A DNA stretch of 64,000 nucleotides, taken from Paraspadella gotoi. Taxonomy: Eukaryota; Animalia; Chaetognatha. The stretch spans positions 6,805,545 through 6,869,544 of the forward strand of contig JBJCIZ010000239.1 in assembly GCA_051294375.1 (NCBI GenBank), read 5' to 3'. The notes beneath the pieces were generated by a model that saw only the letters and a program-made list of their open reading frames with translations, made no database searches and was not told the origin of the DNA. Shown here piece after piece: positions 3,397 through 62,419 of this stretch. The stretch's first letter is position 1. Every line of letters begins with the position of its first letter. The translations under genes were made by a program, and so were the position numbers.

Positions 3397-4139
3397 TTAA
3401 TTTTTGGGCGTGTCGGCCGCTCCCATGCTGCTGATTCCTTTGCCGATGTCCGTCCCTGTTTTTGGGCAGTGGAAGCGACGGAACCAAAACCGATTCCCTG
3501 AGAAGTTTGGAAGAAAAATTCATTTTTAATTTTGATTTAAGACAATGAGCTCCTTGACGAAAGGCAGGTTGCGTGACAGAAGAAACTTTGAGTTTGACAA
3601 TATTCCCTTTCATCCGAAATTGCTACTTTCGGATATATAATTCTTTCCCTCGTTCGAATAATATTGCAGGTTTCTTCGAAACTATTGCCCGTTTATCTTA
3701 ACTTGCTTTTTCGCTGTTAACAATACTGACTAACTTTTCCAAAAAGAGCATCTGAATTTAATTTTAACCCAAATCTGTTTAAAAAACTAAAAACCAAATC
3801 TAACCTTAATTCTTAACCCTGATCTCTAAACTAATCTTTAAAACTTAAACTTTATTCCGAATTTGTAATGAAATGGGACGTTTGGGGAAAATAAGGCCAA
3901 AATACTTTTGTTTCCCCTCAGACTTATCTGCAAGAAATACTGCAATCTCTCTTACGTACCTGCAAGAAATACTGTAATCCTTCGGCGAGCTTGACAGGAG
4001 CTTCAGCCAAAATATTGGCCACGTCCGAAATTTCTAGGAGAGTCGCCTTCTGTTTGTTGTCCAACTTGTTGTACATTGTGTGGACCTAAGGGATAAAAAA
4101 AAAACGAAAATTACGTCCTGCACCTCGAAAATTTTAAAC

Positions 4140-4225
<86 letters not shown>

Positions 4226-7200
4226 CGAGGGAGCGAGCGCGCGCAAAGAATCTTCGTCCAAAATAGATCATAATTTTAACGTTTTTCATTTACTTTTTGT
4301 AAAGTATGCGCCATTTGATTCGTGATCTGAAAATAGCGCCGACTCTAACGCATGTTTAAAATATAACCAATTTTAACAATAAACTTAAAAATTTAATTAA
4401 AAGTAATTTTTGTTGTTGTTTTAATAGCGTTAGCCTTATCAATTCACAGTCACAACCGTCCCTCCGTCTCACCGTGTGATTGAAGGATGCTTCCTTTCCC
4501 GTGACCAGCAAGACGTTGGCCCTCATCCCGTTCAACTCGGCGGGCCGTGAGTTCCGTTCGACGCTTGAAGGATTCGACGAACGCGCGGAGGTTGTGCGCG
4601 TTGCGTTTGTGGTAGAGTCGATCAGTGAAGTTCTTGATGACGGCGTCGATCTCGCCAGTAGTTTTTGGCGCCTGACGACAAAGGACTCGCCTCTCAATTC
4701 TTCTATATATATCTATCTTTCCCATCTTTAAATTCTTTTTTTCCCCTTGACTCAGTTTTGCTCTCTTTCTGTATCCTTTTCCTTTCTTTTTTCGCCTCTC
4801 TTCTCCCTTTTCTCCCTTTTCAAATTCCCCCTCCGCCCCACCACCTTGGATCTGATGCGTGCCGAACCGGTGAAGCACCAAGTAGCTCTCAACCGAAGGG
4901 TCCATCCCGATGTGATCCAACTTCCAGGTTAGTACGGGAGTCTCTCGCAACTTCCATGAATCCCGCCGTCGTGGAGGTGCAATGGATGAGGCAGAGGCCG
5001 AGGCACCTGTCGGGTGCAACAGGCCGAACCGAGCCAGGATGTTGGCACCTGGAAAAAATAAAGGGAATTCAAATCCTTCGTCGCGCAGCGTATTTTCGAT
5101 TCGCGCGGCATTTGAAATCGTCTTTTTTTCTTTATACTTTTTTTAAACACAAAAGGTAGCGCTGGTCGTCGTTTAGATTGGAATCGGCGAAAATAACAAA
5201 AGAGCAACCAAATTTAAACGCATTTAAATTAATTTAATTTAAATAATTTACGTTATACTTCCGTAGTTTCTACGACCATAGTTTTGGCGAAATGTGTCCG
5301 AAAAAAAATAATTAGAGTTGTTCCCTTTTGAAACTATTGTATTTTTGACTGTCGTAATTATTTGTAATTTGCGACCCATGGCCTTCCGGCCCGTCTTAAA
5401 GAAATAAAACCAAACCTAACCTAAATTTATGGTCTTGATATCGCTTTTTAAGTATTAATCTACAGACCGACCGACCGACAAGTGACTTATTGAGGTTGCT
5501 ATTTAAGTTTATTTGAGTATTAGTGGCGCAACTAAAAATAAAGTTATACGATTTCTGAAGATTATATTTTTATCTCTTACGCTTCGTTCGATTCCTTTAG
5601 GGCCCAAAGTAATTAGGAAGAAAAGAAAAGTGGGGGAAAAATAATCAATATTGAAATATAAAAATATTTACTTCAAGTGATACTGGTAGGGAAGCCTGGT
5701 ACTCTGGAGTGAATAAACGAGACTGTGAGAGAGTCTTAATTGAAAACTTGCATTATTTAGTGATAGAGGCCTTAGACCACCAAAGCCAGTCCAAAATCAG
5801 GGGCAATATAGCTTATTTATTAAAGGAATGGATAATTTTGTATCAGTTGTACAAAATTTTATTAAATATTCATTAATATCTAATGTCTAATGATATAATT
5901 ATATAATAATATATATATATAATTATATAATATATATATTTAATCAACGTTTACGAGACAATGAGACATCCACAGAGAGTTGCCTCACCCAATTTATTTT
6001 ACAAAATCTACACGTTTCTTTTTCTTTGCAAATGCCTCCCCTTTCTCTTCACCCGTTCATCGTAAAGCCGCTCCCCCCAATTTACCCTCCCTAACTACCC
6101 CTCCCCCAACCCCGTCCCCGCCTCACCTGCTCCTTCCCCCAACCCGACCGGCGCGGCGACATTGAAATAGTCTAGGACATCCTTGATGGCTCCGCCAACT
6201 TCGGTGATGGACGGGAATCGGTGAACGTCGGGGGCGTCTTCTTCCTGCCGGGCACGTCCACGTGGATTGAAGGTGACTCGTTGGCGGATGCCCGTCATGC
6301 AATCGTGATCCGTGAACCACTTCACGCTGGCCGGGGGAGGGAGCGAAGGAGGGGGAGAGTCAAGAAGTTGGGAATATTGAACAATTTTTCAAAATATTTA
6401 AAAACATTTCGTATTTAACTATTAGTGATCAAACGGGTAGCCTGTGATGCTCACGGAAATGGCACGAAAGAAAGAGCATTCAAGGTTCCACCCGATATCA
6501 ATCTTTATGGGTCGAAAAGACCATTTTCTACGAATAGCTTTTCTTTTTTCCTTTTCTTCTCCTTTCATTTCATTTTTCTTTTTTTTCCTTTCATTTCATT
6601 TTTATTTCCTTTTCCTTTCCTTTCATTTCATTTTTCTTTCATTTTCCTTTCCTCTTTCCATTTCCCCTTTTTCATTCCTTTTATTTTCTTTTCCTCTCTC
6701 AAGACACTTTGGCTTCCTCTCAAGTTCGACCAAATAAGACTTGTGTCATTGAGCGGAGAGAGAGAGAGAGAGGAGAGAGAAAGAGAGAGGGAAGAGAGAG
6801 GTCGAATTTCATTCAAGTGACACGAGCTTCTGCCATTTCGTCACGTCTTTCCTCCCCCGGATGTGGATTGAAGAATCCAGGATGTAATTGAAGTGAAGAG
6901 GCATAGCGCGGAAACTGTCAAACAACTGCGACTAATGCGGTAGAGGTGAGAGGGGGAGAGAGAGGGGGAGAGAGAGGGGGAGGAGAGAGGGGGAGAGAGG
7001 GGGGAGAGAGAGGGGAGAGAGAGGGGAAAGAGAGGGGGAAAGAGAGGGGAAAAGAGAGAGGGGGAAAGAGAGAGGGGGAAAAGAGAGAGGGGGAAAAGAG
7101 AGAGGGGGAAAGAGAGGGAGAGGGGGAGAGAGGGAGAGGGAGGTGAAGTGACTGAACAAGGGTGGAAGGAATGGACTGAAGAAGATTTAAAAAGAAGATA

Positions 7201-9817
7201 AACCTGAGAAAAAGGTGCATATGAAGCGGGCATTACCCACGTTCACGCTGCAATTAATCATCGTTCCCTTCGACGTGACCCGGTAGCTTATTGAGTAAAA
7301 GCTTCCGCTCATGACCACTAGGTACCGGGTTCAATCCCAACTCGCCACGAGAAGAAAATATAGTAAACTGTGGAGCAGGAAATGTGTAGGGGATGGATTA
7401 AAGTACGGACGGAAAAAGTAAGTTTAAATAATGAAAAGAAGCAGAAATATAAAGTAGGATGGAGAGTGAAGAAAAAGTATATCGGGGATTAAGAGGGGTT
7501 TAAATAAAGTTGGGCAGCGGGGAAGAGGGATAGAAGATGGGAGAAGATAGATAAGAGAGAAAAAAAAGTTCGCTCTACATTTTACATCGATTTTCGAAGT
7601 CGTTTGTCGACGTCGTTCTTCGCAGAGATAAAGTGACGCTGATGATTGAGCGAAAATTCGGTCAACTCGGTTTTGTGAAGCGAGGTTAAAAGAGAAAAAA
7701 AAACATAAGCATTCTGTTGAGAGAAATATCGAAATTTGACTTATATTTTTATGTTTAACGCGAAGATGATAATGGATAAAAAAAGGTTCATTGATTTGGT
7801 CGAAACCGATTCGGGGCCTGTAAATAGATATTATATATCATATTATATTTATTATTATTTATTTAATATTAAATTTATATTATATTTATTTATAATATAT
7901 ATAATATAATTTGTAATTATTATATACAGTTTATACACCAACCAAAACCTGTCCAAAGTCAAGGACAAGATAACTTATTTATTAATGAATGGATTGAATA
8001 ATTTCTATATTGGTTCAACCAATTTCATTACAGTATACTTACTCTTTTCTCTCTTCCTTCTCTTTTTCTTCCTCCCCCTTTCTCCTTCCCTCCACTTTCT
8101 CTCCTTTCCTCCATTTTCTTTTCTCACGCTGTGACGACTCGCTTCCCTTCTGTCTCACGTCTCCTCCGATCTCAACTTGTCACTTTTCACTCTTCAGTGA
8201 CTCGGAAACTTTTGATCCCTTTCCTGTTCATTCGTGACTGACTTGCAACTCAACTCGCTCTCTTTTTTTCTCCTCTCCCTCAGTCTTAGTTCTTACTATG
8301 AGTATATCTGTCTGTCCTCTTCTCTCTCTCTCTCTCTTTTAAGAATCAAAACACATTTCGAAGCAGAGTAAACAGTTACGATCTTTCGTGACATTTTTCA
8401 AATTCACTTTTTAGTTTTGAACCGAGAGATTTCTTAATCTTTCATCATATTTAAAATTTAATATCTAATTTAAATTTAAAAAAAATATAATCTAATCCTT
8501 TACCATAATCCCTAACATAATACCTAACTTGAATCCATAACTCTATAATAACCTTATTTTCTAACAAACCCTTATCCTTAACTCTAATATCTAATCAAAA
8601 CTTAACCACATCTCAAATCAAATTAAATTCCGGTTTAAAGTTGATTGAGGCGCTATCGGAAAGAGGCAACGTCTGCTACTTATCTATCTCGGACTCGCGC
8701 TGCATCGACGCTTTTCTCTCTCGAAAAAAAAGGGGGCGGTGGGGTGGCAGGTAGGGGCGGCGGGCGTATGCGGGCAGGGGGTGGTGGGAGGACGGGTAAG
8801 GCGGGTGGGAGGGACGGGCAGGGGGCGCGAGAGATAAGCAGCATGGCAAGCTCAAACTGCTTGAAATAAATCGTAAAGGACAAACGCACAAATAATTCAT
8901 CCCGCGGAAATAAAAGAATAAAACAAATACAAGACGAAAAGGATCGAACCCGCGACCACAACGAAAAAACCGGCCGATTTATCTACTGAGCCACAGTTCA
9001 GCAAAAATGAGGAGGAGCGCCAGGGAAAAGGGAAGGGGGGGGAAGCGTAAGATGAAGGGAAATGCGGTTCGTCCTAGTTTCACCGGCATTCGTCACTGTC
9101 GACCATTGCAGATCTCTCTTTCGCTCTATCTCTCTTTCGCTCTACTCCTCTCTCTCTCTCTCTCTCTCCTTAATGACACGCCGCGTATTGCTATTGGTTA
9201 AATTTGAGAGGATATTGCCTTTTTCTCTCTCTCTCTCTTTCCCTACTCTCTTTCTTCTACGTCGTTTTTTTCGCGCTACTTTTTCTGTCCGTCTCGCTCT
9301 CTCTCGTTCTCCTCTTTCCCTCTCTCCTTCTCTTTAAATATTGCTCAGATTCTGATATTTTTCAATTAATCATTCTTATCTTACGCCTCTACTAACTTAC
9401 TAAGCCGCCCTCAGCTAATAGGATCTTCTCAACCCTACTTTTAAAAAGGCCTCTCAGCTGCCTTTCCTTCTTCCCTAGTTCATCCACGGCTACTTTTACT
9501 ATATAATTATACTATATCTAAAAATAACTTGCGTAGATTTTTTAAAATTCCCAAAATGATCTACTGCTTGGTTGTTGTTTCGATGAATTTTGTCTTGGTT
9601 GAAAATTGAAATTCAATATTCGCTCATGAACCTGCACACCAGCGACAATTGTAATGAATAATATACTAGAAATATACTAGAAATAACTTTACATATTGCG
9701 AGAATTTTTCTTAAATCTTAACAATGTAACATCCTCCGGGTTTATAAATAGAAAATGATCCGTCGCTTTTATGACGTCATTTATCGTCTCTTTGCAGATG
9801 CGCGACACACACACACG

Positions 9818-9851
<34 letters not shown>

Positions 9852-10354
9852 GTACATTAAAGGCCTTCCCCCACATCGCGCCCGCGAGCAAGAGTGAATA
9901 AAACATTTAGCTTTTTGTTTTAAAAATTTAAGAGAAAAAACGAAACGAAAAAAGCCATAAAGAAACAAGTAATCATGTTTTTTCGCAAAATCTATTCTCA
10001 TTCTACTTAATAAAATTTAAGCTTAAAATTTACATAAAACTTAATACCTATACCATTTACAAAATCTATATTTTCAGTCCCACGAGCCTTTCTCGGTCCC
10101 TCGCTCCCACAAGAAAGGGATCCTCCCTGCGCCCCCACTCTCCTTCTACCCCCTCATTCCCTCCCTCCCCCCCAAACCCCAACAACTCACGTCTTGTGCG
10201 AACACCCCAATCGTGAACGGTGACGATCACGGGCCGTTTTCCGTCCAATTCTCCCTGGACGTAAACGTTGACGTCANNNNNNNNNNNNNNNNNNNNNNNN
10301 NACGTCACCGACTCCCTCCACCGCGATCACGTGCTGCGTCTCCGAGGTCGACAT
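3397..10354 (-). CDS. NDRG: NDRG-family (Ndr) alpha/beta-hydrolase-like protein, resembling the invertebrate ZK1073.1/CG2082-type branch. Six exons: 10354-10191, 6326-6127, 5048-4845, ~4700-4473, 4085-3960, ~3497-3397
   Basis: GT-AG bounded exons translate, after correcting a few 1-bp indels, to MSTSETQHVIAVEGVGDVNVYVQGELDGKRPVIVTVHD(LG)CSHK, HVDVPGQEE, VGLGEGAGANILARFG, CLGLCLIHCTST, NLRAFVESF, NVLLVTG and KLAEGLQYFLQG. These are the NDRG motifs in the expected order. Confidence 0.9.
7275..7349 (+). mobile_element. tRNA-derived sequence (SINE head or tRNA pseudogene, CAT in the anticodon position)
   Basis: A-box-like TAGCTTATTGAG and B-box GGTTCAATCCC with imperfect stems. A related copy lies on the minus strand at ~51767-51835. 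Confidence 0.6.
7880..10048. repeat. Copy B of the ~2.2 kb direct duplication
   Basis: Matches 1-2187. Confidence 0.95.
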
Positions 10355-13818: not shown

Positions 13819-16311
13819 TGTTTTTGAATTAAATAAAATCGTTGTCAAAACTAAACTCAAACTGTCTCTAATCGTCCCAAACAACGAAAAGAAAGGATTT
13901 ATATAACAAAGTTTTAAATAAAAAAAATAAAGATCTTATTTTAAAATTTATTTATTTAAAAAAATATATTTATAATAAAAAAATTAAATTATTAAAAATT
14001 TCTGGTATTAAAGCATTATATTAATTAAATAAAATTATTTTTTTAAAAATAATATATATATAAAAAAGTTTAATATTTTTATTAAATTTTAAATTATTAT
14101 AATTAAAACTTAAGAGTTTATTAATATTTTTAAAAGCTGAATATAAATATTAATTAATTATTTTTTAATTTTGTTTTTACAAGAATATATTTTAAATTTA
14201 ATTTTTCTGCTTTTAAACATATAAAAAAATTTTGTAAAGCCTTTATTGAATAAGGCCTAAACCAAAAATGTTTATTTTATATAACAAAACAATTTTATAA
14301 AAATAATTTTTATTATAAAAATAAAAGAATAGAAGTATAAATATTTAAAAAAGATTAATTAAAATTTTTCGTTAATAATTATCAAAATTTTATTTCCGCT
14401 ATAATAAAAAATAATTTTTTTTTAAACTTTCTCCTATAAAAAAGATTAATAATTATTACCATTCAAATTCCTTTGATGATATCAATTTTATGCCTGGGTC
14501 CCCTTAAGCGACAATCGCAAGAGCTGCGCCTCTGTAATTTCCTTTCCATAATTTCACTTGATAAAAGAGGAGAGAGGAAGGGTTTAGAGAAAGAGACCGG
14601 TGGTAAGTCGCCTCACAATATATAAATCATCCATTCATTTAATAAATAAGCTGTTTTGTCTGCTGATTTTGGACAGGCGATATTAACGATAATAACATAG
14701 TGGTCTTTTCTTACAATTGAAACATTCTTTGAACTATTATACCTCTTCATTGATAGGGAATCCAGGTACTCTGGGAGTGAATAAACGAGACGGTGAAGGG
14801 AGTGAATAAACGAGACTGTGAGAGAGTCTTGATTGAAAGCTTGGAGGGACCTGTTATGCCATTAGCTTGTAAGAGTGATGGAGGCCTTAAACCACCAAAG
14901 CCTTTCCAAAGTCAGGGGAAAGATATTTTAGTTATTAAATGAATAATTTTATATTGGTTGTACCAATTTCATTGCAAGATTCACTCACAGTCCAGTTGAT
15001 TCACTGTTCACTAGCGAACACGCGATAGAGTGACCCCTGGGATGGACTTTGTACAGGCTAAATGTATTATAATTAATTTGTACCAATAAATCCCTAAAAA
15101 CTACTGTAAAAATCAAATTGTTAAAGAACCCAATCAATGAATCATATAAAAATTAGTATTTACCCAAAATAAAAATTATTTATTCATTTAATTTGATAAA
15201 ATAACTACCTCGCTCCTGACTTTGAACTTTATACTTTGAGAATTTCAATTAAAGACATCAATACCATAAACGCCAAGGGTCTTGTAAACGCCCATCAGGA
15301 ATTCCTCAGGGTTTTCATCCGCGCGGCGTTTCTCTAACTTAACGTCGGAAGCTTTGGCGGCCACAACTACGTGGGACGGCGACCCTGGGACCGTTTTTTT
15401 GAATTTGAATTAGAATTTTTTACTCCGCATTAGTGTTCAATGTGATAGTAAAAACAAGAAGGTATGAATTGTTACGAGGCTAGGGATCTCGCCCCTGCTC
15501 AGCTTCCTAAAGTTAGGAAGGAAGAGAGAGGTACCTGAGCAAGCTTTCTCGTCACTCCTTTGCTATGTCAGCTATCTCAGCATAGATCATCAAATGAGAA
15601 GTTGGCGGGAAAACAGAAGAACCAAGAGAGATCTCGGGTACCACAGTTCCCATCCAATAGGAAAGAAAGGTTTATTTTAAAGTTTTAGTCCCAAACGCTT
15701 CTCAGATCGCTACTAGGGTTCAATGTCATTTTCCTTTCACTCCTTGCTCCAGACTTGCTCCTCTCTCATCATCATCAGGAGCAAGCGCTTCCTCCTCCTA
15801 TTCTCCTTCATGCATCGATTGCTCTTCAGTGTTTCGATCGTCGTGAGCGTTGGCTGTCTGTTGATTGTTGTCGTTGTTGTTGCATAATTGTCTTTGTTGT
15901 CGTTGTCGTTACTATGGAATAATGACAACGCACTTCTCGCCGATTCGTTAAAATTATCCGCCTGAGAATTATTTCGTCTTGAATTGATCCTTAAAATTAA
16001 GTTTTAACTTCGTCCGCTTCTCGAGTCATAATTTCAAAGATAAAATGGAGATGAACAAAAGGCGAACAAGTGTCGCCTTCGGCGGGAAGAAGCGAAGGAA
16101 GCGACGAAGCCTCCTGGCGAGAACCGTGAAAATCGCGATCGAAGAAACAAAAGACGTCAGGAACAAAATCTGGGTATATGACGATAAAGATACGATAAGA
16201 AAAAGAGGAAAGATGAAAATAAAAAAATGACATAATAAAGATATAAATAAAACGTTTTCTAGAGTTCCTTAACTCTTGGCCCATGAAAAAAAGTTAATTT
16301 ATTTAACATAT

Positions 16312-16958
16312 TATGGTGGACTAAAATCCACCAACCGTTCATCACGGCCATTGGTGCCGGAGGCAAGTCATTCGTCTCCCAACCCAAAGGTCCGGGGTTC
16401 TAGCCCGGTGTCGTCTGGCAGTTAGAGGGACGGGGCGCTTAACCCGCCTGTAACATGGTGTTACAGCCTGATCCGAAGCTCAGGGACTGCTTATATTGAA
16501 CGGTTCTGTCATTAACACTTATCAATAATTACTGTCTCTTCATTGGTGAGCCCGACTTCCGAACACAACAGCAACAACAACACTTTCCAGGCGACATGCC
16601 TCAACCTGGCGATGCACTTTCCGCCCACAACATATCAGCGACATGCCTCAACTTGGTGACGAACTTTCCACCAACAACAATTCACTTAAGAGACGCAACA
16701 GACTTCTCCCTACGGAGGGGGGATGTATGGTGGACTAAAATCCACCAACCGTTCATCAGCGGCCATTGTGCCGGAGGCAAGTCATTCGCCTCCCAACCCA
16801 AAGGTCCGGGGTTCTAGCCCGGTGGTCGTCTGGCAGTTAAGAGGGACGGGGCGCTTAACCCGCCTGTAACATGGTGTTACAGCCTGATCCGAAGCTCAGG
16901 GACTGCTTATATTGAACGGTTCTGTCATTAACACTTATCAATAATTACTGTCTCTTCA
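16312..16958 (+). mobile_element. TRIM (miniature non-autonomous LTR retrotransposon) with a tRNA-like sequence in both LTRs (Helenus-like)
   Basis: LTRs at 16312-16542 and 16724-16958; LTR2 has TG...CA ends, LTR1 lacks the initial TG. PBS TGGTGAGCCCGAC at 16544, PPT GGAGGGGGGA at 16714-16723, ATAT on both flanks, ~180 bp non-coding interior. Confidence 0.9.
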
Positions 16959-17258
16959 ATATGTTACAATGCTTAACTGTAAAACATGCATATTGTAGGC
17001 TTGCTGAATAGAATAATAATAATTATTATTATTATTATTATTATTAAAGTTATATGATAACTTAATACTTAATAGTAATTTGGAACGATGTTGAAAATAT
17101 GATAATCCCGTCCTTGACTTTGGTTCGTCCAGGCGGTTGATTTCTTAGAAATGCTTTGGACTCTCGTCCCCGACTCGACGCTGAGAAAAATCGAGGAAAC
17201 TTTTACTGGGTGAGCCGAGAAATTCACTTCTCGGGATTTGGAAGGGGTTGGGCGAAGT

Positions 17259-23955: not shown

Positions 23956-25551
23956 TGTGCACTTGAGTTCCGGACATTGACATTCGTCGTAAACCAATTT
24001 GCGTTTCTGTCCATTGACTTTGCATTCGCTCGTCGAGAGGAGATCGGCGGAACAAGGCAACTTTTCATACCTGATCGTTTAATTCTAAAGAAATTAATTT
24101 ACGATACGCGTAAGTTGACAGTTATAACTAATATATCCCCTCCTCACGTTTTCACGTCGCATCCGCCCAAAAAGTTAACGTTCCCAACTCGGAAACACCT
24201 CCTCGGCAAAGTGGGCGCGGCCACTGGGAACCAGGCGGCGCAATCGAGGCACGCGTCTCGGTCTTCGCCGCAACCCGACTTGAGGGTGACCTTGACCGTG
24301 CCGGTCGGGCACTCTTCGAACTGTTCCTCGCAGACGTGGGCGTTCTTCTTGCACTTAGTGACCAGCTGACCGCAACGAGTCTTCTCGGTGTAGTCGGAAT
24401 AGCAAGATCGAGGGAGGGAGTCGTGCTCGCAGATTCGCTCGTGCTCGAAAACCTTTTTTAAAGAAGAAAACGGAAAACTGTGGCGGTTTATTCACACCGC
24501 CTCACGTNNNNNNNNNNNNNNNNNNNNNNNNNNNNNNNNNNNNNNNNNNNNNNNNNNNNNNNNNNNNNNNNNNNNNNNNNNNNNNNNNNNNNNNNNNNNN
24601 NNNNNNNNNNNNNNNNNNNNNNNNNNNNNNNNNNNNNNNNNNNNNNNNNNNNNNNNNNNNNNNNNNNNNNNNNNNNNNNNNNNNNNNNNNNNNNNCTAAC
24701 CCGTTATCTCCTCTACGGAAAGAAAGAGGACGGCCGTAAGGCGTCTTGAAGGAGTAGCAACCCCTCTAGCCCAGGTTCCAAGCCCAGGACCCTTTCATTA
24801 GCTGCTAAAGCGGGTTAAAGAAGTTTGAGAGCGGCCTTTTCCAGCAGACTTCGCGCTTTATCCACTCTGGTCAGCCGTTCCTGTTGCGTTTCTCGGACCA
24901 TGTACTTGCTGGAGATTTCTAACCTCCCTTCACTGGAACCAATCGAGGGTGGGTTACAAGCTTACGACCCCCACCTCCCGCCCTAAACCTTTCAATCCTC
25001 ACCTTTGGCCTCTGCGTCCAATGATAACATCGGACGCACATTTTTCCTTCCTCCTCGTAAGAGGAATTCCGGAAAAGGTCATTTCCGGTTCCTCGCTAGC
25101 AAGACGGTCCACTTCCGGTTTGGGCGGAGACGGGGACAGTTTTGTCACCACCTCGCTCTCGCAGACCGATCTCTGTGCAGCCGCAGCGGAACGTTCGCGG
25201 CTCACGGCTTTCTGGCAGTCGGTGAGCACTCCTTTATTTTTGGGTGGGGTGAAGGTGGGCGGGGGGTTATGGGGGGGCAAGAGAAGGGTTGTGGTGTAAC
25301 ATGCAGTGAATGAACTGAATAAGAATAACTGGTATGAATTTGATAGTTGAATGATATATGTTGATTAACAGGAAAATGGTTAAATGAATAAAGGTAAAAC
25401 AATTGGTCAGTATAGCAAGGTACGAAAGGCTGAGGAACAAACGTTGAATTACTTAATACATAATTTAATAAATAAATACATAATTAAATTATATTAATCA
25501 ATCAAAGGAATCGAATAAACAAAAAATAAATAAATTAAATAAATAAACAAA

Positions 25552-25594
<43 letters not shown>

Positions 25595-25686
25595 ACAAAT
25601 AAATAAATAAATAAATAAATAATTAAATAATTAAATAAACAAAAAAATAAAAAAATAATTAAAGAAATAAATAAATAAATAAATAA

Positions 25687-25762
<76 letters not shown>

Positions 25763-26742
25763 ATTAATTAATTAATCAATGCATTTTCAAACCGGCTTCT
25801 TCTTCGACTTTTCGCACGGTCGCTTCTTGAATCGCCACGACCAACACTGAAGGCAACGGGGTCGTCGTCGTCGTTGTTGTTGTTGTTGTTGTAATCTCAG
25901 CCGTCGTCCCGGTCCGGCTTCCTCCAACTCTTCGTGGCACATGAAGGACCCGTTGATCATCTCCTGACGCGCGACGTAGCAGTCGAGCTCGGGCGGTCGC
26001 TGCGGGCGGCATTCCGACGAAGTCTTCGAGTTGCATTCGCATCGATGCACGATGCCGCAATCCTGCATCACGGGGACTTTGTGCATGCAATCTCGGTCGC
26101 AGTGCTGTGGAGGGGGGGGGAAGACGGAGTGAAAAACTGCGGGAATTAAAAAAAAACCAAATTAGAGATTATGTATAAATCCTTAGAAAACTAGACTATT
26201 AGTGAATATTAATCGGTATTTTTTAGTAGTTTTTAGCGGACAACATACTCGTCGGCTTCTCTCACTCACCACTTCGTTCTCTTCCTCCGATTTTTTCAAT
26301 TTCATCTCCCATCGATAACAAGGGAGGCAAGCGGTTCCATTCTCGGCGCAGGCGAAGGACCCGCCCCTCCAAACCTTTACCGCGACGTGACAAGGCGGGG
26401 GCGAGGGGGAAGCGAGCGGGCGACAGTCGGCGGGTGTTAAGCATTCGCAGGTCTTGGTGTAGTTGCCGCATTCGCCGTATGTCATTTTGGTTGTTTGGCA
26501 GGGAGAGAGACACTGGATGCAAGAGAGAGTGGGAGAGGGCGAAAGTGGAGGAGGGGGGAGAGAGAGAGAGAGAGACAGGAGAAAAGGGGAAAGGAGCGGA
26601 GAGAGAGAGAGAGACTAAATAGAATCGATAATATGGGCAACATAGTCTCCCACCCTCAACCCAAAGTTTCCTTTTCTCATTACCCCACCTTCCCTTTCCC
26701 TACAAATCCACTCTTACTTCATTGCCCTCCCCATTTTTCTCT

Positions 26743-26812
<70 letters not shown>

Positions 26813-28124
26813 ACTTTGGGTCCGTCGTCGTTGACGATCGGTTTGACCACGAATTTCCACGAGACGCACTCTCGACACTTTCGTTCGCCTCCTTCGAGAA
26901 CGACGCATTCGGAGAGACCCTCCACGGGCTCCTCCACCAGCTCGTGACATCCGTCGACGTCCGGTCGCGGGGGTCTGCATCCGGGAACTTCCTGACAGGC
27001 GCATTCCTCCTTGTGGAATCCGCAGTCGTCCGTGGATTTGAAGGGGCGCTCGCAGGGTTGGCATTCCTGTGAGGGAAAGGGGATGGGATACGGGATATAG
27101 GATAGGATATAGGATAGGATATAGGGTAAGATATAGGATAGGATATAGGATAAGATATAGGATAGGATATAGGATAAGATATGATATAGTATAGGATAGG
27201 AGATAGGATAGGATAGGGGATAGGATAGGAGATAGGATATAGGATAGGGGATAGAATAGGATAAGGGATAGGATAGGATAGAATATAGGATAGGATATAG
27301 GAGAGAATATAGGATAAGATATGATATCATTTAAAGAAAAACTCATGGATTTGATTCTGGTGGCTTGATACTCCTATGATGATATAGGATATAGGATAGG
27401 AGATAGGAGATAGGAGATGGGATAGGATATAGGATAGGATAGGATATAGGATATGATAGGATACAGGATAGGATATAGATATGGCCTATGTTTTAAAAAA
27501 ATCTTAAAATATTTTTCAAAATTTCAAAAAAATTAAAATAACACTTAAAAAACATTTATTTTTTTCTAAATGGAAAGTAAGTTAAATTTTTTTTTTGGGG
27601 GGGGCGGGCCCAGGGCTCCCTTGAAAGCCCAGCTCATCATTCTACAATAAACTTTACAAGTTTACAACATTTTCAACTTATACGAAAGTATTTTACATAA
27701 AATAGAATCTAATTTAACTAATTCTTTCCTAGTTCAAGGAATGAGGGAACAGAGGGCCGCTTGTTTTTTTGATTTTTTTAAAGAAAAAATATTTCGGAAT
27801 TCCTTACTTTCTTCTCGTATCCCGGGTCGGGTTTCCGCGCGCAGTATTTCTCAGCGCATCGAGTAAGTTCGTTCTTTCGTTCGGCGACGACGTCGCACGG
27901 ATTGTTGCATCCGAAGTCGACGAAGGAGGGACAAGGGCGACACGCCCACTCCGGACAGTCGCAACAGTCCGTGATTTTGTGGGGATATTTGCGGCCTTGA
28001 AAGGCGAGGGGAGGGGAGGGGGGCGGTGGAGGTCGAAAGGGGGGAGAGAGAGGGAAGGAAGATCTTAACTTCATCTGCCATCATTGTCCGTCTGTCTCTC
28101 TCTACCTTTGTCAGTTCGAGACGT

Positions 28125-28172
<48 letters not shown>

Positions 28173-31100
28173 CCTTGTGTTCTGCCCAACACTGCTTCAT
28201 GACCTCGTCGTCGGCAGAGCCACATTTCTCCGGACAGCATTCGTAACTCGCGATGCAGCTGCACTTTTGTTTATTTTTCTCGGAGCGTTTGGCCGCCGCA
28301 TCGACGGTAGCGCCCCTCGCTGCATTCTCTTTCCTTATGTCGGGGAAAAACAATTCTATTTGAGCTTCCAAAACATATAGTTATAATTATAGTCATTATA
28401 CACAAAGAATTAATAGATTTTAAAGACATATTAATTCCGGTATTTTTTAAGTTTTGACGAAACAAATTATTCATTTAATACAAAATAATAATAATAATAA
28501 TAATAATAATAATTATAATAATAATAATTATTATTAATAATAATAGCTGATGAAGTCAATATTGACATGCAAAAAAGAAAACCTTTTTGAAATTAAGAAT
28601 AAAANNNNNNNNNNNNNNNNNNNNNNNNNAAAAGAGAGAGATTAAATTATAAACCGCATTTATTTTATGATCATATAACCACATTTCTAATAGTTGTATG
28701 ATTACACAGGGTGAAACGTATGCAAAAATGACGGTTAATGATATTTTACCTTTCATGAAAAATATTTCTATTAATACTGAATTTAACATAAATAATTACA
28801 TTTTTCCATGATAACAAAACAAAGTATTATATGAAAGATGATAACTTAAGTTTCTGATGGTGCCAAAAAATTTTAAAAAAAATATTATCTAAAATAATAC
28901 AAAATGTAGCTAAGGTTATAAATATTTAAAACCTAAATCTATTAAAACATCTATTAAACTGGACCGACCTAACTATTGTACGACCGACCGACGAAAATTG
29001 GCTCCCCGAGTACTCGCTGTGGCAACAAAAAAAAACGTAGCAAAAAAAAATCTTAAGCAAAATGTTGACGAAATGAACGTCAAAGTTGTTGTTTTTGTTT
29101 TTACATTAGTTGAATCTTTCATTGCGCATCGCGCGAAAAAATGAAACTTAAAAAAGAGCGCAAAATTTATTGCATCGATGATTGACCGCCTTTCGTACTT
29201 TTTTTTAGTTTTCTCCTCCGCACATTCATTGTGTCTAATTTGCTTTTTTTTTTGCTTTGTTTCGAAACCAAGTGGCCGCGGCCACCAGCATTCGACTTCG
29301 TTAACGCTTCGAACGAAGGAAAACCAGGAGAAAACTGAGACGCGGAATATTTGCCATATATTTTTTTTTTTTAATTCTTAAATTTTTTCCCGATTTTCTC
29401 CGGAAGCAATACCTAATCTAAATTGATTAATAATATTCTTTAACCTCTATTTCGTCGAGAGATACCATATAGAGACATGTCCCGCTTGGCTATTCGTCCG
29501 GGTGTCTTCGCTGCCTGGTTATCGACCTCACCTCAGGCAGTAGACATTCCTGGTCAAAAACTAACGCTTTCCCAAAATGAAAGGTAAGTTTCTAGTTTTA
29601 TCCTTTTGAGGGAGAAGTGACGGAATGATCACCCCCCGGCAATTGTAGGGGTCTGTATGAGGATAACGACCAGAGAAGAAACAGAATAAAAATTGTAAAA
29701 GGAACATTATGAATGTAGTGTCAGCGTCGCTGAGTTAGATTATTTTAAGATCGAGAACGAACCTGCTAAAGAATAAGTACGATTTAAACGCTTTCTCTTT
29801 CTTTTTAATTCCTCGTTGACCTTTGATCGCTATTTACTTAATTTCGGACTTGGGGCAATTTTTAATGACCTTATAAATATGTTCTCAAAGTAAGACATTT
29901 GGAATGCGTTTTTTAGTTTCTATAAAGAACGTCAGTTGAATACGTCTGTCCAACCGCTTTGGAAATGCTGTTTTTTCTCGTTTCCTTTGAATAATTTTTT
30001 GATAATAAAAGTTTCCTGGAAAAATAAACTATGATTCTCTTTTTCATTTCTATTTTATTCAATTTAAATTTAATTCAATCCAAGCGGACGACGAATGCCT
30101 ATTCTCTGCTGGCAGTGAAAGGAAGAAACATTTTCACAGTCAAAAACAGGGTTTCACAAAAGCATCAATTCCATGACCCCCAATTGGAACGTGATAACCG
30201 CGGTAGAGTCTTAGAATATCGATTCCATTCATCACTGACGGCTACAAAGCATTGAATTTTTAGCGAACATAAAACGCCATGTATAAATGTAATAAATGAT
30301 AATATAAAGAATCCGAAGTCACGAAATGATTTCGATAGATGAATAGGATGATGAGCCGAAAGTCAATATATTTCTTATTGGGAGCAGAAGAGCATCTCGA
30401 AGTTTAACATAGTTCGTCTGGTCTTTTCCAAAACAATGATAATAACAATTATTTAATCCGTCATCACTGAGCATTCTTTTAATGGACGCCTATTTATTAA
30501 TTTAATGAATAAAATATAATTAAAACATCGAAAAAATGTTTTAAAAACGTTGCCATCGACCAGATTCTCGAAGGTCAGACCGGAATCAATTTTGTCCGAA
30601 GCAAAACTTCGTCTTTCGCCAGAGGATTCAGGTAAATAAAATAAATACATTATTTAGTTTAGAAAATGTGATAATTAGGCATGAATTGATGCTTTTATGA
30701 CCTATAAGATGCCCTGGACAATGAGGCATATCCGCCACAGCTGGCGATGAGGGCTTTTGGACCCTGCAGTTATCACCCCAGTCACTGTGACGTGTTGATA
30801 CAAACAGAGACAAACCTGTGTAAGGGGATTTGGAACCGCGGACTGACGGTTGACAAGCAAGATAACTGAGCTGGACCACAGTTCAGTGAACGGCTGTGAA
30901 TAAACCTCTCTACTACCTTTTCCTTTGGGCTTCTTCCCCCCCCTTTTATCTTTTTTCTCTCTCGCTCTCCCTCGCACCGTCCCACCTCCCCCCTCAAAAA
31001 AAGGCCGCTTCTGGATCGTCGAGAATTTCAGGTGGCGGCACTGCGGCCCCTGCAGGTCTGCGCGGTCGCCGACGATGCCTGCGGAAGGCTGCGTCCGTGG

Positions 31101-34100
31101 ATTCAAGCCTACTTTTGAAGAGCGGCCTGGAAGGACGTTGTTGGTTCGTCACGCGCAGAGGACGGAACTTTTTTTTAGTTTCGGCGCGAATACTCGCGGG
31201 CGACTCAAAAGTCAATTTGTTGCGGTCAGGCGGTCTGTCCGCATAAGCTCATATAAAAAAGCTCAATAAAGTTCATATGTAGTAAGAACTTTTAGAGGGT
31301 ATAAGTAACCGATAAAAATTTTAATGCGCATAATATAATATTTATGCAGTCAGGATCACTCGATGAGAAAGAATCAAAGGATAAAATTCAAAAATACTGA
31401 ATCTGTTTTATTTGACTCTTGGCAATCGATAATGTATTTATTAATAATCGATAATGTATTATTAATAATCGATAATGCAATTATTAAACGCTTCTCGTGC
31501 AGGAGCGGCGAGAGAGAGGCTCAACCTCCGCCTCAGGTGAGGGGCCCGGGAAGCCTCCAGGGGGCCCGGGATGGCCCCTGAAGAAGAGAGGTAAAAAAAG
31601 AAAAAAAGAAGAAAAAAAGGGAAGAATTACAGAGAAGTTTGAGCAGCTGGAGCAATTCTCAAAGCAGAAAGTCCGGTAATCGAAAAACTAAAAACCTAAA
31701 ATTAATGGAGAGCGGGAGGGGGACGGGCCAGGGGGTCAGTGGAGGGGCCCCCGCCATTTCTCTCCGCCGCCCTGTTCTCGTGCATATGTTTCATACTTGT
31801 CTAGTCAATAGTCTCACCTATAGTCTAGACTATGTCATTGGTCAGTGACCATTGGTCACATTATCATCGAAAAAATGCATTGACGAAGAAGAAAGTTACA
31901 GGGCGGCAACGCTGTGAAATAGGCGCTTTAAACCGATTAACAGTTAACCGATAATCTGGTAAAAATTTAACCGGTTAATTTTAAAAATTGACTAATTTAA
32001 AACTTTTATTTGTTTTAAATACTATGGTTTGCCTTTGCAAGGCTGTCACCTATTTCTCAAAACTTTTCTCCCTATTTTAGATAATATATGTAAAGTATTA
32101 AAAGTGAAAAATAATTTTTAATTTCAAAACTATGAATTTATTTTAATTAAAAAAAATCACATGTTTCGCGCGAGGTTGTGAGCCTTCTTCAGTGCAAATT
32201 TGGTTTGTGAAATTTCCACATATATGATAATGAGAGAGAGAGACAAGAGAGAGAGAGCTCTTTCTTCTTCTTATTATTTTACCATATTGAAAAAATAAAC
32301 TATCAACTTTATATTTTCAACTTCACTTTCATTTATTTCAATGTTTATTATTTAACAATGTAGTTTATTTATTACTTTCGCAGTTTTCAAAAGTTTCTTC
32401 TTACTTATTTACATTGCTAAATGTTATTTACTAATACTAACTAAATTCAATTTCCTTTTAATTTCCTTTTCTCAATCTAACTGACCTTAACATGTAATCA
32501 AACATTCTCTTCTCTCTCTCCTCTTCTTTTTTCTCTCTTTTCTCTCTTTCTGTCTCATTGAAGAAGGGCTAACATTTGCATAAAAAGAGCATAATATGTC
32601 CCTCTTTTAAAATGATGGGAACCGACCATTTTAATTTAATATAAAAAGTTAATTCCGCTTAGATCACTTTACCACCTCCAACATTAGTTGATTTTTTTTA
32701 TGTTTTTTTTTATTATTACAATTTTTTCTTTGATGAATTCCTTTTAATTTATTTTCATTGAAAATAAAAAAAATTGTTGTTACTTAGTTTTATCATTATA
32801 TGATAGTTAGCAATTAATTAACATTTTAGCATTTTAATCGATAAATTAAAATTTTTTAAATTAAACCGTTTTTTTTCACGCCTAGCTGTGAACTAGCCGG
32901 TTCTTATTAACTTTTAATTTTAGCGTGAAAAAAACGGTTAATTTAAAAAATTTTAATTATCGATTAAAATGCTAAAATGTTAATTAATTTGCTAACTATC
33001 ATTATAATGATAAAACTAAGTAACAACCAATTTTTTTTATTTTCAATGAAAAATAAATTAAAAGGGAATTCAATTCAAAGAAAAATTGTTAATAATATAA
33101 AAAAAACATAAAAAAAATCCAAAACTTAATGTTGGAGGTGGTAAAGTGATCTAAGCGGAATTAACTTTTTATAATTAAAATTGTCGGTTCCCCATCATTT
33201 TAAAGAGGGACATATTATGCTCTTTTTATGCAAAATGTTAGCCTTCTTCAATGAGACAGAAAGAGAGAAAGAGAGAAAAAGAGAGAGAGAGAAAGAGAAA
33301 ATGTTTGATTACATGTTAAGGTCAGTTAGATTGAGAAAAGGAAATTAAAAGGAAATTGAAATTTAGTTAGTATAGTAAAATACATTTAGCAATGTAAATA
33401 AGTAAGAAACTTTGAAAACTGCGAAAGTAATAAATAACTACATTGTTAAATAATAAACATTGAAATAAATGAAAGTGAAGTTGAAAATATAAAGTTGATA
33501 GTTTATTTTTTCAATATGGTAAAATAATAAGAAGAAGAAAGAGCTCTCTCTCTCTGTCTCTCTCTCTCATTATCATATATTGTGAAATTTCACAAACCAA
33601 ATTTGCACTGAAGAAGGCTCACAACCTCGCCGAAACATGTGATTTTTTTAATTAAAATAAATTCATAGTTTGAAATTAAAAATTATTTTTCACTTTTAAT
33701 ACTTACATATATTATCTAAAATAGGGGAGAAAAGTTTTGAGAAATAGTTGACAGCCTTGCAAAGGAAAACCATAGTATTTAAAACAAATAAAAGTTTAAA
33801 TTAGTCAATTTTAAAATTAACCGGTTAATTTTACCAGATTATCGGTTAACTGTTAATCGGTTAAAGCGCCTATTCACAGCGTTGCGCCCCTGTAACTTTC
33901 TTTCGTCAATGCATTTTTCGATGATAATGTGACCAATGGTCACTGACCAATGACCATAGTCTAGACTATAGTTGAGACTATTGACTAGACAAGTATGAAA
34001 CATATGCACGAGAACAGGGGCGGCGAGAGAAATGGCGGGCCCCTCCACTGACCCCCTGGCCGTCCCCCCTCCGCTCTCCATAATTTTAGTTTTTAGTTTT

Positions 34101-36189
34101 CGATTACCGACTTTCTGCTTTGAGAATTTCTCCAGTGCTCAAACTTCTCTTAATTCTTCCCTTTTTTTCTTCTTTTTTCTTCTTTTTTTCTCTCTTCTCA
34201 GGGGCCATCCCGGGCCCCCCTGGAGCTCTCCCGGGCCCCTCACCTGAGGCGAGGTTGAGCCTCTCTCTCGCCGCTCCTGCACGAGAAGCGTTTAATAATG
34301 CATTATCGATTATTAATAATACATTATCGATTATTAATAATACATTATCGATCTGCCAAGAGTCAAATAAACAGATTCAGTATTTCTTGAATTTTATCCT
34401 TTTGATCTTCTCATCGAGTGATCACGTGACTGCATAAATATTATACTTATGCGCATTAAAATTTTTATGGTACTATACCCTCTAAAGTTCTTACTACATA
34501 TGAACTTATGAGCTTTTTTATGAGCTTATGGGACAGACCGCCTGACCGAAAAAGTGACTTATTGAGTCGCTCCGCGAGTATTCGCGCCGAAACTAAAAAA
34601 AAGTTCCGTCCTCTGGCGACGAACCATACAACGTCCTCCAGCCGCTCTTCAAAAGTAGGCTTGAATCCACGGACGCAGCCTTCCGCAGGCATCGTCGGCG
34701 CCGCGCAGACCCTGCAGGGCCGCAGCTGCCGCACCTGAAATTCTCGACGATCCAGAGCGGCCTTTTTTTTAGGGGGGGAGGTGGGAGGTGGCGAGGGGAA
34801 GAGCGAGAGAGAAAAAGATAAAAGGGGGGAGAAGCCAAAGGGGGAAAAGGTAGAGAGGGTTTATTTCACAGCTCGTTTCACTGACTTGGTCAGCTCAGTT
34901 CTTGCTTGTCAACCGTCAGTTCCGGGTTCAAATCCCCTCACGGTGTCTCGTTTGTATCAACACGTCAGTGACATGGGGTGATAACTGCAGGTCCAAAGCC
35001 CTCATCGCCAGCTGTCGGGATATGCCTCATGTCCCGGGCATCTTAGTCATAAAAGCATAATTTCACTGCCTATTATCACAATTCTAAACTAAATAATTTA
35101 TTTATTTATTTTACCTGAATCTCTCTGCGAAAGACGAAGTTTTGCTCGGACAAAATTGATTCCGTCTGACTTCGAGAATCTGGTCGATGGAACGTTTAAA
35201 ACATTTTTTCGATGTTTAATTATAATTATCATTAAATTAATAAATGGGTCCATTAAAAGAATGCTCGTGATGACGATTAAATAATTGTTATTATCATTGT
35301 TTGGAAAGACCAGACGACTATGTGTAACTCAGATGCTCTTTCTGTCTCCCAATTAAGAGAGATATATTGACTTTCGGCTCATCATCTATTCATCTATCGA
35401 AATCATTCGTGATTCGGGATTCGTTATATTATCATTTATACATTTATACATGCGTTTTATGTTCGCTAACAATCAATGCTTTGTAGCGTCAGTGATGAAT
35501 GGAATCGATATCTAAGACTCTACCGGGTTATCACGTCAATTGGGGTCATGGAATTGATGCTTTGGAAACCCTGTTTTTACTGTGAAAATGTTTCTTCCTT
35601 TCACGCCAGCAGAGAATAGCATTCGTCGTCCGCTTGGATTGAATTAAATTAAATTGAATAAAATAGAATGAAAAAGAGAATCATAGTATTTTCCAGAAAC
35701 TTTATTATCAAAAATTATTCAAAGGAAACGAGAAAAAACAGCATTTCCAAAGCGGGTGGACAGACGTATCAACTGAGTTCTTTATAGAAACTAAAAACGA
35801 TTCCAAATGTCTTACTTTGAGAACATATTTATAAGGTCATTAAAAATTGGCCCAATGTCCGAAATAAGTAAATACGATCAAGGTCAACGAGGGATTAAAA
35901 AGAAAGAGAAAGCGTTTAAATCGTACTATTCTTTGCAGGTCGTTCTCGACTTAAAATAATCTAACTCAGCGACGCTGACACTCATTAATGTTCCTTTACA
36001 ATTTTATCTGTTTTTGCTCTCGTTACTCATAAGACCCCTACAATTCCGGTGATCATTCCGTCCTTCTCCCTCAGGATAAACTAGAAACTTACCTTCATTG
36101 GAAAGGTTAGTTTTTTGCAGGAATGTTCCTCTGCCTGAGGTGAGGTCGATAAACCAGGCAGCGAAGACCACGAATAGCCAAGCGGACAT
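18093..36189 (-). CDS. Secreted cysteine-rich repeat protein with a C-terminal von Willebrand factor A domain. Exons: 36189-36093 (signal peptide), probable ~35180-35115 and ~34760-34600, then 28333-28173, 27995-27808, 27066-26815, 26512-26270, 26104-25793, 25231-25003, 24452-24148, 24070-23955, 23710-23528, 23291-23144, 22884-22761, 18208-18093
   Basis: GT-AG exons are mostly phase-compatible. VWA motifs: CPVGYRLDLQLLLDSS, AKTGEVL...ARWNQAEVPKILVVILNG, DVASAAKLWRDAGARIVALGIG, LVEDVC*. Upstream exons are Cys-dense. The first exon is MSAWLFVVFAAWFIDLTSG|GTAAGT. Linking the 5' exons across the gap at ~28605-28629 is inferred. Confidence 0.75.
18409..18442 (+). ncRNA. Degenerate minimal hammerhead ribozyme motif (Penelope-like-element type)
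   Basis: AGTG-CTGATAA-A-GACTT..AAGTC-GAAA-CGTG-TC-CATT; a stem I pairing AGTG/CATT is possible. Confidence 0.55.
18636..18788. repeat. Perfect 71 bp-arm inverted repeat (11 nt spacer) made of two head-to-head truncated hammerhead/PLE-tail copies
   Basis: 18636-18706 is the reverse complement of 18718-18788. Confidence 0.9.
18856..19105. repeat. 22 bp minisatellite (ATTGATGCGATGATAGTCATTC and variants), about 11 units
   Basis: Tandem units are directly visible, with a gradient of unit variants. Confidence 0.9.
27085..27480. repeat. GGATA/GATAT simple repeat in an intron
   Basis: Directly visible. Confidence 0.9.
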
Positions 36190-36996
36190 TGTCTCTTTAT
36201 ATGGTATTCCTCTGAAATAAGTTATTATTATTAATCAATTAGATTAGGTATTGCTTTCCGGAAAATCGGGAAAAATTTTAAGATTAAAAAAAAAAATAAT
36301 ATGGCAAATTCCGCGTCTCAGTTTTTCTCCTGGTTTCCTCGTCGAAGCGTAACGAAGTCGACTGCTGGTGGCCGCAGCCACTTGGGTTTCGAAAGCAAAG
36401 CAAAAAAAAAAGCAAATTAGACACAATGAAAGTGGGAGGAGAAAACTAAAAAAAGTCGAAAGGCGGTCAATCAATCGATGCATAAATTTTGCGCTCTTTT
36501 AAGTTTCATTTTTCGCGCATGCGCAATGAAGATTCAACTAATGTAAAAACAAAAACAACAACTTTGCGTTCATTCGTCACAATTTTGCTTAAGATTTTTT
36601 TTGCTACGTTTTTTTTGTTGCACAGCGAGTACTCGGGGAGCCAATTTTCGGTCGGTCGGTCAGTCAATAGTTAGGTCGGTCAGTTTTAATAGATGTTTTA
36701 ATAGATTTAGGTTTTAAATATTTATAACTTAGTACATTTTGTATTATTTTAGATAATATTTTTTTAAAATTTTTGGCACCATCAGAAACTTAAGTTATAT
36801 CTTTCATATTAATACTGTTTTGTTATCATGGAAAAATGTAATTATTTTATGTTAAAATTAGTAATTATAGTAAATATTTTCATGAAAGGTAAAATATCAT
36901 TAACCGTCATTTTTGCATACGTTTCACCCTTGTGTAATCATACAACTATATAGAAATGTGGTTATATGATCATAAAATAAATGCGGTATAATTTAA
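28642..36996. repeat. Giant inverted repeat, arms ~28642-32884 and ~32921-36996, spacer ~36 bp
   Basis: The arms are reverse complements along their whole length, with many small indels. The left arm starts next to an N-gap. Confidence 0.95.
33608..33641 (+). ncRNA. Degenerate minimal hammerhead motif (mirror copy at ~32159-32193, minus)
   Basis: CTGAAGA-A-GGC...GCC-GAAA-CATG-TG. The cleavage-site nucleotide is G, so it is likely inactive. Confidence 0.45.
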
Positions 36997-45566: not shown

Positions 45567-46198
45567 NNNNNNNNNNNNNNNNNNNNNNNNNNNNNNNNNN
45601 NNNNNNNNNNNNNNNNNNNNNNNNNNNNNNNNNNNNNNNNNNNNNNNNNNNNNNNNNNNNNNNNNNNNNNNNNNNNNNNNNNNNNNNNNNNNNNNNNNNN
45701 NNNNNNNNNNNNNNNNNNNNNNNNNNNNNNNNNNNNNNNNNNNNNNNNNNNNNNNNNNNNNNNNNNNNNNNNNNNNNNNNNNNNNNNNNNNNNNNNAGAG
45801 AGAGAGAGAGAGCGAGATATCGATAATGGTAGACATAAAAACAAAGCTTTTTTTCACGACTGCTTCATGTGTTTCTCCTCTTTTTTGGGTCGTGAGTAAT
45901 TGAGTATAAAACGGTCGGCTTGACTGTCTGTCTGTCTGTCTATATGTCTATCTGACTGTCTGTTTGTCTGTTTGTCTCATTGTCAATCTGTCTCATCTTT
46001 GTTATCAATGTTTTCAATGTTTTCTTACACAGATAAATAGCTAAATCTTTTTCAACTATTTCTTTAAATAATTTGCATAATTTCTGTATTTGATTGGTTT
46101 AGACAATATTTGGCTTAAAAATAATCAGACTTTGTTTTCCCTTTACGTTTCTGTTCTCCTCCAAACTTTGCTTTTTTCTTTTTTTGCTTTCTTCACTC

Positions 46199-46279
<81 letters not shown>

Positions 46280-46636
46280 ATGTTTATTTTCCACTTATTC
46301 GAAACTACACCACTCTGCAACCCCTTTATATTTTTCTCTCACCCCCTTTTTATCTCTCTTTCCTCTCCTCCCCCTTTCCTTTCCTCCCCATTCCTTTTCT
46401 CCAGCTTTCTTTTCCTCGTTCTTTCCTTTTCTCCCCCTTTCCATTCTTCACCATTCCTTTCCTCCACCTCCTTTCCTTTTCTCCCTTTTTCATTTCGTCC
46501 TCCTTTCTTTGCCTCTCGCTTTCTTTTCCTCCCCATTCCTTTTCTCCTCCTTTCCTTTCCTCATCATTTCCTTGAAGTCGAGAGGATTTTACTGTCGGCG
46601 CTGTTGTGGCGGCACGAGGCGGAAATATGCGCGGGT

Positions 46637-47199: not shown

Positions 47200-47267
<68 letters not shown>

Positions 47268-62400: not shown

Positions 62401-62419
62401 AATATTATTTTATTCCCAG

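Follow-up and report, generated by a model that had tools for sequence, protein, structure and literature searches.

A high-copy miniature LTR element of the chaetognath Paraspadella gotoi with a twister-type motif in each LTR

The element and its host locus

The window analysed here, a 64-kb stretch of the Paraspadella gotoi genome, holds by self-comparison only one copy of a protein-free miniature LTR element, which lies in sense orientation within an intron of a host gene (Table 1). The intron is joined out in a contig of run X9, a run guessed to be RNA, in which the exons are covered at a depth of 222 and the intronic flanks at 0. The same contig carries 23 bases before 16026, right after an AG, that are absent from the window and are possibly an upstream exon or leader.

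Table 1. Positions in the window of the element, its host intron and the second twister-type family
Feature	Position	Strand	Basis or remark
Host-gene exons flanking the element's intron	16026-16173 and 17133-17210	+	
GT-AG intron holding the element in sense orientation	16174-17132	+	Joint 16172->17132 in X9; splice sites
Left target-site duplication ATAT	16308-16311	.	Sequence; element end set by contig loose ends
Miniature LTR element	16312-16958	+	647 bp, protein-free
5' LTR	16312-16542	+	231 bp, termini TA...CA
tRNA-like head, 5' LTR	16345-16414	+	A-box-like from 16352, B-box-like 16396-16406
P5-permuted twister-type motif, 5' LTR	16418-16490	+	Descriptor and pairing
Self-complementary hexamer in place of P1, 5' LTR	16434-16439	+	Predicted cut 16440/16441
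Non-coding interior	16543-16725	+	183 bp
Primer-binding site (PBS)	16544-16556	+	Complementary to tRNA-Trp 3' end, 12/13 bases
Diverged 47-bp tandem pair inside interior	16591-16684	+	
Polypurine tract (16714-16723), then TG	16714-16725	+	Sequence; contig ends at 16726
3' LTR	16726-16958	+	233 bp
tRNA-like head, 3' LTR	16759-16829	+	B-box-like 16810-16820
P5-permuted twister-type motif, 3' LTR	16833-16906	+	Descriptor and pairing
P5, 3' LTR motif	16833-38/16901-06	+	
G-A, 3' LTR motif	16845-46	+	
T1, 3' LTR motif	16847-49/16889-91	+	
Hexamer, 3' LTR motif	16850-55	+	Predicted cut 16856/16857
T2, 3' LTR motif	16862-63/16894-95	+	
P3, 3' LTR motif	16864-82	+	
P4, 3' LTR motif	16883-87/16896-900	+	
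Right target-site duplication ATAT	16959-16962	.	Sequence
Second family: decayed twister-type motif	24708-24795	+	G-A at 24726; beside N gap
Second family: tRNA-like segment, then decayed twister-type motif	51655-51827	-	Segment 51827-51755; G-A at 51727

A first-pass annotation of this DNA had described a Helenus-like miniature element with two near-identical LTRs, a PBS, a polypurine tract (PPT), a 4-bp duplication and about 180 bp of non-coding interior, and this anatomy is borne out in every part. At 97.9% identity, the LTRs differ from each other by four one-base indels and a single substitution, the PPT is a purine run, and the open reading frame that spans the interior (16500-16814) has no Pfam match. 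The ATAT duplication is exactly 4 bp long, the fifth base differing, and is the one full target-site duplication (TSD) pair seen; one contig likewise reads from an LTR end through 4 bases into an LTR start. Integrases of retroelements trim two bases at LTR ends, and such trimming is consistent with the TG that follows the purine tract and the T that precedes the PBS. The PBS was matched by eye to the tRNA-Trp 3' end in Fig. S2 of Kojima (2024, PMC10886601; here and below, statements on published work refer to the portions of each source that were drawn on). With two LTRs, no coding capacity and a length below 1000 bp, the element has the size and layout of a Helenus TRIM, which supports its assignment as a non-autonomous miniature LTR element. 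No reverse transcriptase was detected by Pfam among 85 ORFs of the window (130 filtered, less some, plus one added), and no Gypsy helper was found within it.

Elsewhere in the window, an NDRG/ZK1073.1-like gene lies on the minus strand at about 3400-6340, with one-base frameshifts within an exon that point to assembly errors. Its closest protein relatives share 80-93% identity with it over one exon; sequences from named animals reach no more than 49% against one such protein, and in a tree of this one gene the group stands on a long branch separate from named molluscs and arthropods. The ESM Atlas contains neither of the homologues looked up. An 8.4-kb region beginning beside an N gap (28642-36996) is 90% identical to its own reverse complement and is possibly a long-read fold-back artefact, and direct duplications of 96% identity near N gaps (3-2210 with 7880-10064; 45797-46573 with 46797-47559) may be uncollapsed assembly overlaps. 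Pieces of a Tc1/mariner-type transposase occur at 58386-58968 on the plus strand (DDE_3, E 8e-16; weak HTH). Several cysteine-rich, exon-like reading frames at about 24147-28080 on the minus strand look like one gene and have no Pfam match, and a repeat of about 190 bases is dispersed at 72-79% identity (5706-5872, 14797-14981, 42237-42372 and 62220-62406).

The tRNA-like head

Each LTR carries a tRNA-like head which, read by hand, has tRNA spacing and a 7-bp acceptor-like stem, two of whose pairs are G.U; its anticodon position reads CCC, and its A- and B-box-like motifs each show one mismatch to the consensus. The GGTTC of box B is present, the TRGCY of box A is matched at three of five positions, and the tRNA-like segments fold only marginally better than their shuffles (z -2.0 and -1.0). 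The earlier likening of the segment to tRNA-Gly(CCC) holds for the acceptor-like stem, the box-like motifs and the CCC, whereas only three of five pairs form in the anticodon stem, ARAGORN reports no tRNA gene in the window, and the covariance-model similarity on which that reading had been made to depend failed to appear, Rfam giving no tRNA match for the LTR at E<=10. Because both programs miss the head, the tRNA-Gly label is unproven; judged from its sequence, the head is likely a decayed tRNA-derived promoter. Anticodon and isotype often disagree in Helenus (Kojima 2024, PMC10886601).

A twister-type motif in both LTRs

Directly behind the tRNA-like head, both LTRs contain a P5-permuted twister-type motif that was absent from the first reading. 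The descriptor used to define it was built in P5 order on the published layout (PMC8501958) and written after the motifs had been seen; in the window it matches in the two LTRs only. In its strict form it matched none of 20,000 LTR shuffles and no site in 30 window shuffles, and in its loose form 51 of 20,000 LTR shuffles and 34 sites in 30 window shuffles. Set against the table of PMC8501958, the catalytic G and A, the second A, the U and A of L4 and the pseudoknots T1 and T2 are all present, and in the predicted local fold of the LTR, P3, P4 and P5 are well supported. P4 forms all five pairs with an A-U closure, while P2 forms two of three, with a C.A mismatch. Instead of a closed P1 hairpin the motif has a 6-nt linker: what is left of P1 is one G.U pair that a palindromic tetraloop caps, and the resulting hexamer is confirmed to be self-complementary. 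The Rfam twister models, including RF02684 (Twister-P5), gave no match at E<=10 for a 106-base stretch, and no hammerhead core is found on either strand of the element.

A relaxed descriptor scan of the window located two further motifs, which belong to a second family; the tRNA-like segment of the minus-strand copy near 51.7 kb is 81% identical to 7267-7338. Relative to the element, the second-family motifs change two of the three T1 pairs, the closing pair of P4 and the hexamer, with complementarity retained throughout, and all four motifs carry a self-complementary hexamer in place of helix P1. When the two LTRs and the two second-family motifs are aligned in a four-row pairing table, 87.5% of its 64 cells are paired, T1, T2 and the hexamer at 100% and P2 at only 50%. 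P2 is defective in both motifs of the second family, one of which has a further defect, either at the cleavage site or in T2. The relaxed motif arises by chance at 42 sites in 300 block shuffles, falling to 1 in 300 under the added demand for a self-complementary hexamer, which 4 of 4 real matches carry. The covariation rests on two families, not on four independent sequences, and the descriptors were tuned post hoc, so these numbers overstate certainty. A third family may be represented at 34860-35000 on the plus strand, mirrored near 30550-30860 on the minus strand, where a twister-like L4 loop stands about 65 bases behind a B-box-like motif; this weak candidate fails the descriptors.

These comparisons bear on the idea that the twister resemblance is a chance product of a GC-rich LTR. 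The loose descriptor finds about one site per shuffled window, the descriptors were fitted after the fact, and 12 nt around the cleavage motif recur in Ajax LTRs that lack a twister loop (PMC10886601), all of which a coincidence would explain. It would explain far less readily the failure of the strict descriptor in all 20,000 LTR shuffles or the two further motifs with covarying pairs, a configuration found at one site in 300 shuffles. On the evidence of shuffles and covarying motifs a chance origin appears unlikely and largely refuted, and it is rated as highly improbable.

Comparison with natural type-P5 twisters

Of a collection of 241 loci, 20 passed the twister descriptor. Twenty phage loci were submitted to Rfam, 19 of them descriptor-positive, and 18 of these 19 matched twister models (17 Twister-P5 above the gathering score, one twister-P1 below it); the descriptor thus picks true twisters. 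Two of the phage loci, L155 and L212, carry the element's own T1 variant and pass the Rfam gathering score. These two, L273 and other phage loci are P5-type twisters with an alternative T1 pseudoknot.

The element departs from the 50 natural P5 twisters collected in several respects. Its P1 segment is 6 nt long, against 14-30 nt in 50 of 50; its P4 closes with A-U, against G-C in 49 of 50, a pair that the search pattern forced in about 31 of them; and two of three P2 pairs form, against full pairing in 47 of 50. The active-like nested fold is less stable than a competing hairpin by 7.5 kcal/mol, a difference that is at most 3.8 in 47 of 50 natural P5 twisters. Over the whole transcript, the computed energies are -174.7 for a swapped dimer, -176.9 for two monomers and -194.4 for the free minimum; the dimer gains nothing over the monomers, and both lie well above the minimum. 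The probability of hexamer-hexamer pairing is 0 in this energy model, which excludes pseudoknots, and the predicted 416-nt circle is not unusually stable (z -1.0).

Departures of this kind would be expected of an ordinary Helenus-type TRIM whose twister is inactive or vestigial, and whose uncut, terminally redundant RNA undergoes normal strand transfer. The short P1, the weak P2, the favoured blocking hairpin and the missing Rfam twister match all agree with such an element; uncut RNA meets every need of the classical pathway, and the host intron is spliced in X9, the individual of which may or may not carry the insertion. Nevertheless, T1, the P4 closure and hexamer complementarity have been kept by compensatory changes between the two families, a pattern difficult to account for unless the fold was at one time under selection. 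The common variants among copies also avoid the core, a point that is weak alone (about 8% by chance, by a hand estimate). An inactive twister is, on this evidence, unlikely.

Dispersal and variation among copies

The inference in the first-pass annotation that the element belongs to a family was upheld by public contigs. The element stretch, or part of it, is contained in 11 of 13 listed public runs; two matching contigs come from run X10 (organism B) and one from run X11 (biofilm). In run X5, contigs that exit the LTR number 116 before 16726, compared with 13 before 16724; a further 72 + 29 exit behind 16958/16959, with a flank agreement of only 0.42-0.47. More than 100 unrelated flanks at sharp ends identify a dispersed high-copy family and rule out a single-copy locus, and the exit positions indicate that integrated copies start with TA (not TG) and end with CA. 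Among 15 of 40 joints listed, none was an empty-site joint. A metagenome match of 21 bases, in a contig with bacterial-looking ABC-transporter genes, was rejected as chance.

In runs X1, X5 and X9, summed depth on the element exceeds that on its flanks by factors in the thousands, although depth does not equal copy number. The LTR-to-interior ratio of summed depths is roughly tenfold in X9, similar to the DNA run X5, and hints at many solo LTRs, with the same reservation that depth is not copy number. No dominant unit-length RNA is seen in the X9 depth ratio; contigs cannot show RNA level or ends, and a ligated RNA circle would leave no junction visible in them.

Among copies, the contigs show the G insertions behind 16344 and 16767 and the C at 16375 as common or majority states. 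These common states, together with the one-base frameshifts in the nearby NDRG exon, suggest that several of the LTR-LTR differences may be assembly errors, and the differences cannot date this copy. All seven common variants miss the twister core: two, the C at 16826 and at 16829 in other copies, preserve both acceptor-like pairs, a third maintains a pair at the P5 end, a fourth falls in the P3 loop and the other three in the LTR tail. Minor variants occur in T1, at 16847 (about 1%) and 16891 (3-4%), both CpG and with no visible linkage. Many of the minor variants at 16760-16917 are C>T or G>A changes at CpG sites, which suggests host methylation of the repeat.

A proposed mechanism of spread

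The locus is best read as a Helenus-like TRIM that probably functions like an LTR retrozyme. With slightly better than even confidence, this high-copy non-coding TRIM is proposed to spread in the manner of an LTR retrozyme, by way of a 416-nt circle. Transcription would start at the tRNA-like head by Pol III, or arise by read-through, and cross the whole element. No T4 terminator occurs on the element's sense strand, the first T4 run standing at 17201, which suits a Pol III transcript reaching from LTR to LTR. The RNA would then be cut at 16440/16441 and 16856/16857 to release a 416-nt unit. Since all that remains of P1 is one G.U pair, pairing of the two LTR motifs by way of their hexamers may be required for cutting, and under such a dimer requirement solo LTRs would be mostly inactive. 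A host tRNA ligase would next close the unit into a circle with one whole LTR, a step that would be needed because RNA cut at both sites lacks the terminal repeat on which strand transfer depends. Finally, priming by tRNA-Trp would allow a helper to copy and integrate the element, trimming two bases per end and making the 4-bp duplication. The helper is presumed to be of Gypsy type, since the element has a 4-bp TSD and shares its Trp PBS with a Gypsy family of Kojima.

Several of these steps have published counterparts. In tests on P1-type ribozymes, P1 is dispensable and defects in P2 and P4 are tolerated (PMC11662667). Axolotl hammerheads with a one-pair helix and a palindromic tetraloop, which the hexamer of the element parallels, cleave as dimers, and RtcB circularises their RNAs (PMC7229834). 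For retrozymes, copying from a circle with one whole LTR is the proposed model (PMC7761336/PMC4918200).

The same lack of a terminator lends itself to a different role, in which an active twister only trims ends: slow or partial cutting in the 3' LTR would replace the Pol III terminator, giving a linear RNA with a terminal repeat of about 97 nt and no circle. Many published Helenus LTRs have, by eye, a T-run behind the tRNA part, the place occupied here by the twister. However, both motifs share sequence and local context, so that selective cutting needs an extra mechanism, and the conserved self-complementary hexamer suggests that the two motifs act jointly; end-trimming is accordingly considered decidedly unlikely. 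The retrozyme-like reading can also be taken further, to an animal LTR retrozyme equipped with a Pol III promoter of its own and with a twister that acts only as a dimer: cutting and circularisation would be confined to transcripts containing both LTRs, and the many solo LTRs in host introns would do no harm. This extension is tentative and, on balance, doubtful.

Relationship to known elements

Helenus elements are TRIMs/TRIMp3 of less than 1 kb with a tRNA-like segment in the LTRs and, in animals, a 4-bp TSD (Kojima 2024, PMC10886601). Most families have TRGCY together with YGG in their box A and show GGTTC in box B; tRNA origin of the LTR segments was judged by Censor/tRNAscan-SE, and Pol III transcription was expected, not demonstrated (PMC10886601). 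The element shares with them its two LTRs, tRNA-like segment, GGTTC B box, PBS, PPT and 4-bp TSD; its tRNA-Trp PBS type is that of Helenus-2_SyJa and Gypsy-32_NVi, and CCC at the anticodon position also occurs in Helenus fish families (PMC10886601). Unlike Helenus, it lacks the TRGCY of box A and has a twister-type motif behind the head. A motif search, in which line breaks can hide motifs, found none of six element motifs in the published Helenus/Ajax data file, and in the main text of PMC10886601, as far as drawn on, ribozymes are named in one reference title only. In Ajax-1 LTRs, the 12-base stretch shared around the predicted cut is followed by a hairpin and no twister loop, and is either chance or a relic. 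By eye, the LTRs of Helenus-2_SyJa and Helenus-2_SyUm, which have a tRNA-Trp PBS, contain a hammerhead-like core behind the tRNA-like part.

Plant LTR retrozymes contain type III hammerheads and a tRNA-Met PBS, and their circles have been demonstrated (PMC4918200; PMC7761336), whereas animal retrozymes are tandem, non-LTR elements with type I hammerheads and without PBS or PPT (PMC4918200; PMC7761336; PMC7229834). Like the plant elements, the one described here is non-coding, with a ribozyme-type motif per LTR, a PBS, a PPT, a 4-bp TSD, a likely Gypsy helper and a unit RNA, here predicted, that runs from ribozyme to ribozyme. It is smaller, however, and differs in its animal host, twister-type motif and tRNA-Trp PBS. 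Having no hammerhead, it is not a retrozyme by definition, but by analogy it likely works like one.

With type-P5 twisters (RF02684; PMC5408937) the motif shares the order of its elements, the catalytic G and A, T1, T2, L4, P3, P4 and P5, and differs in the 6-nt self-complementary linker that stands for P1, the A-U closure of P4 and the C.A in P2. Twister variants of Schistosoma Perere-3 (PMC8501958) resemble it in their weak P1, retroelement setting and similar P3 stem; those are, in contrast, P1-type, belong to a non-LTR element and define a 5' end. SINE-like hammerhead repeats of Schistosoma (PMC6765202) likewise combine a Pol III promoter with a ribozyme, but are non-LTR. The open full-text literature, to which the search was confined, yielded no twister within an LTR element.

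As described so far, LTR retrozymes occur in plants and carry hammerheads, animal retrozymes are non-LTR and tandem, and Helenus elements have no ribozyme. These groups would be linked by a twister placed in the LTRs of an animal TRIM with a tRNA-like head. If this proves true, the twister would gain a second role in retrotransposition and a natural dimer-dependent twister would exist, which suggests that Helenus and other TRIMs be re-screened for ribozymes.
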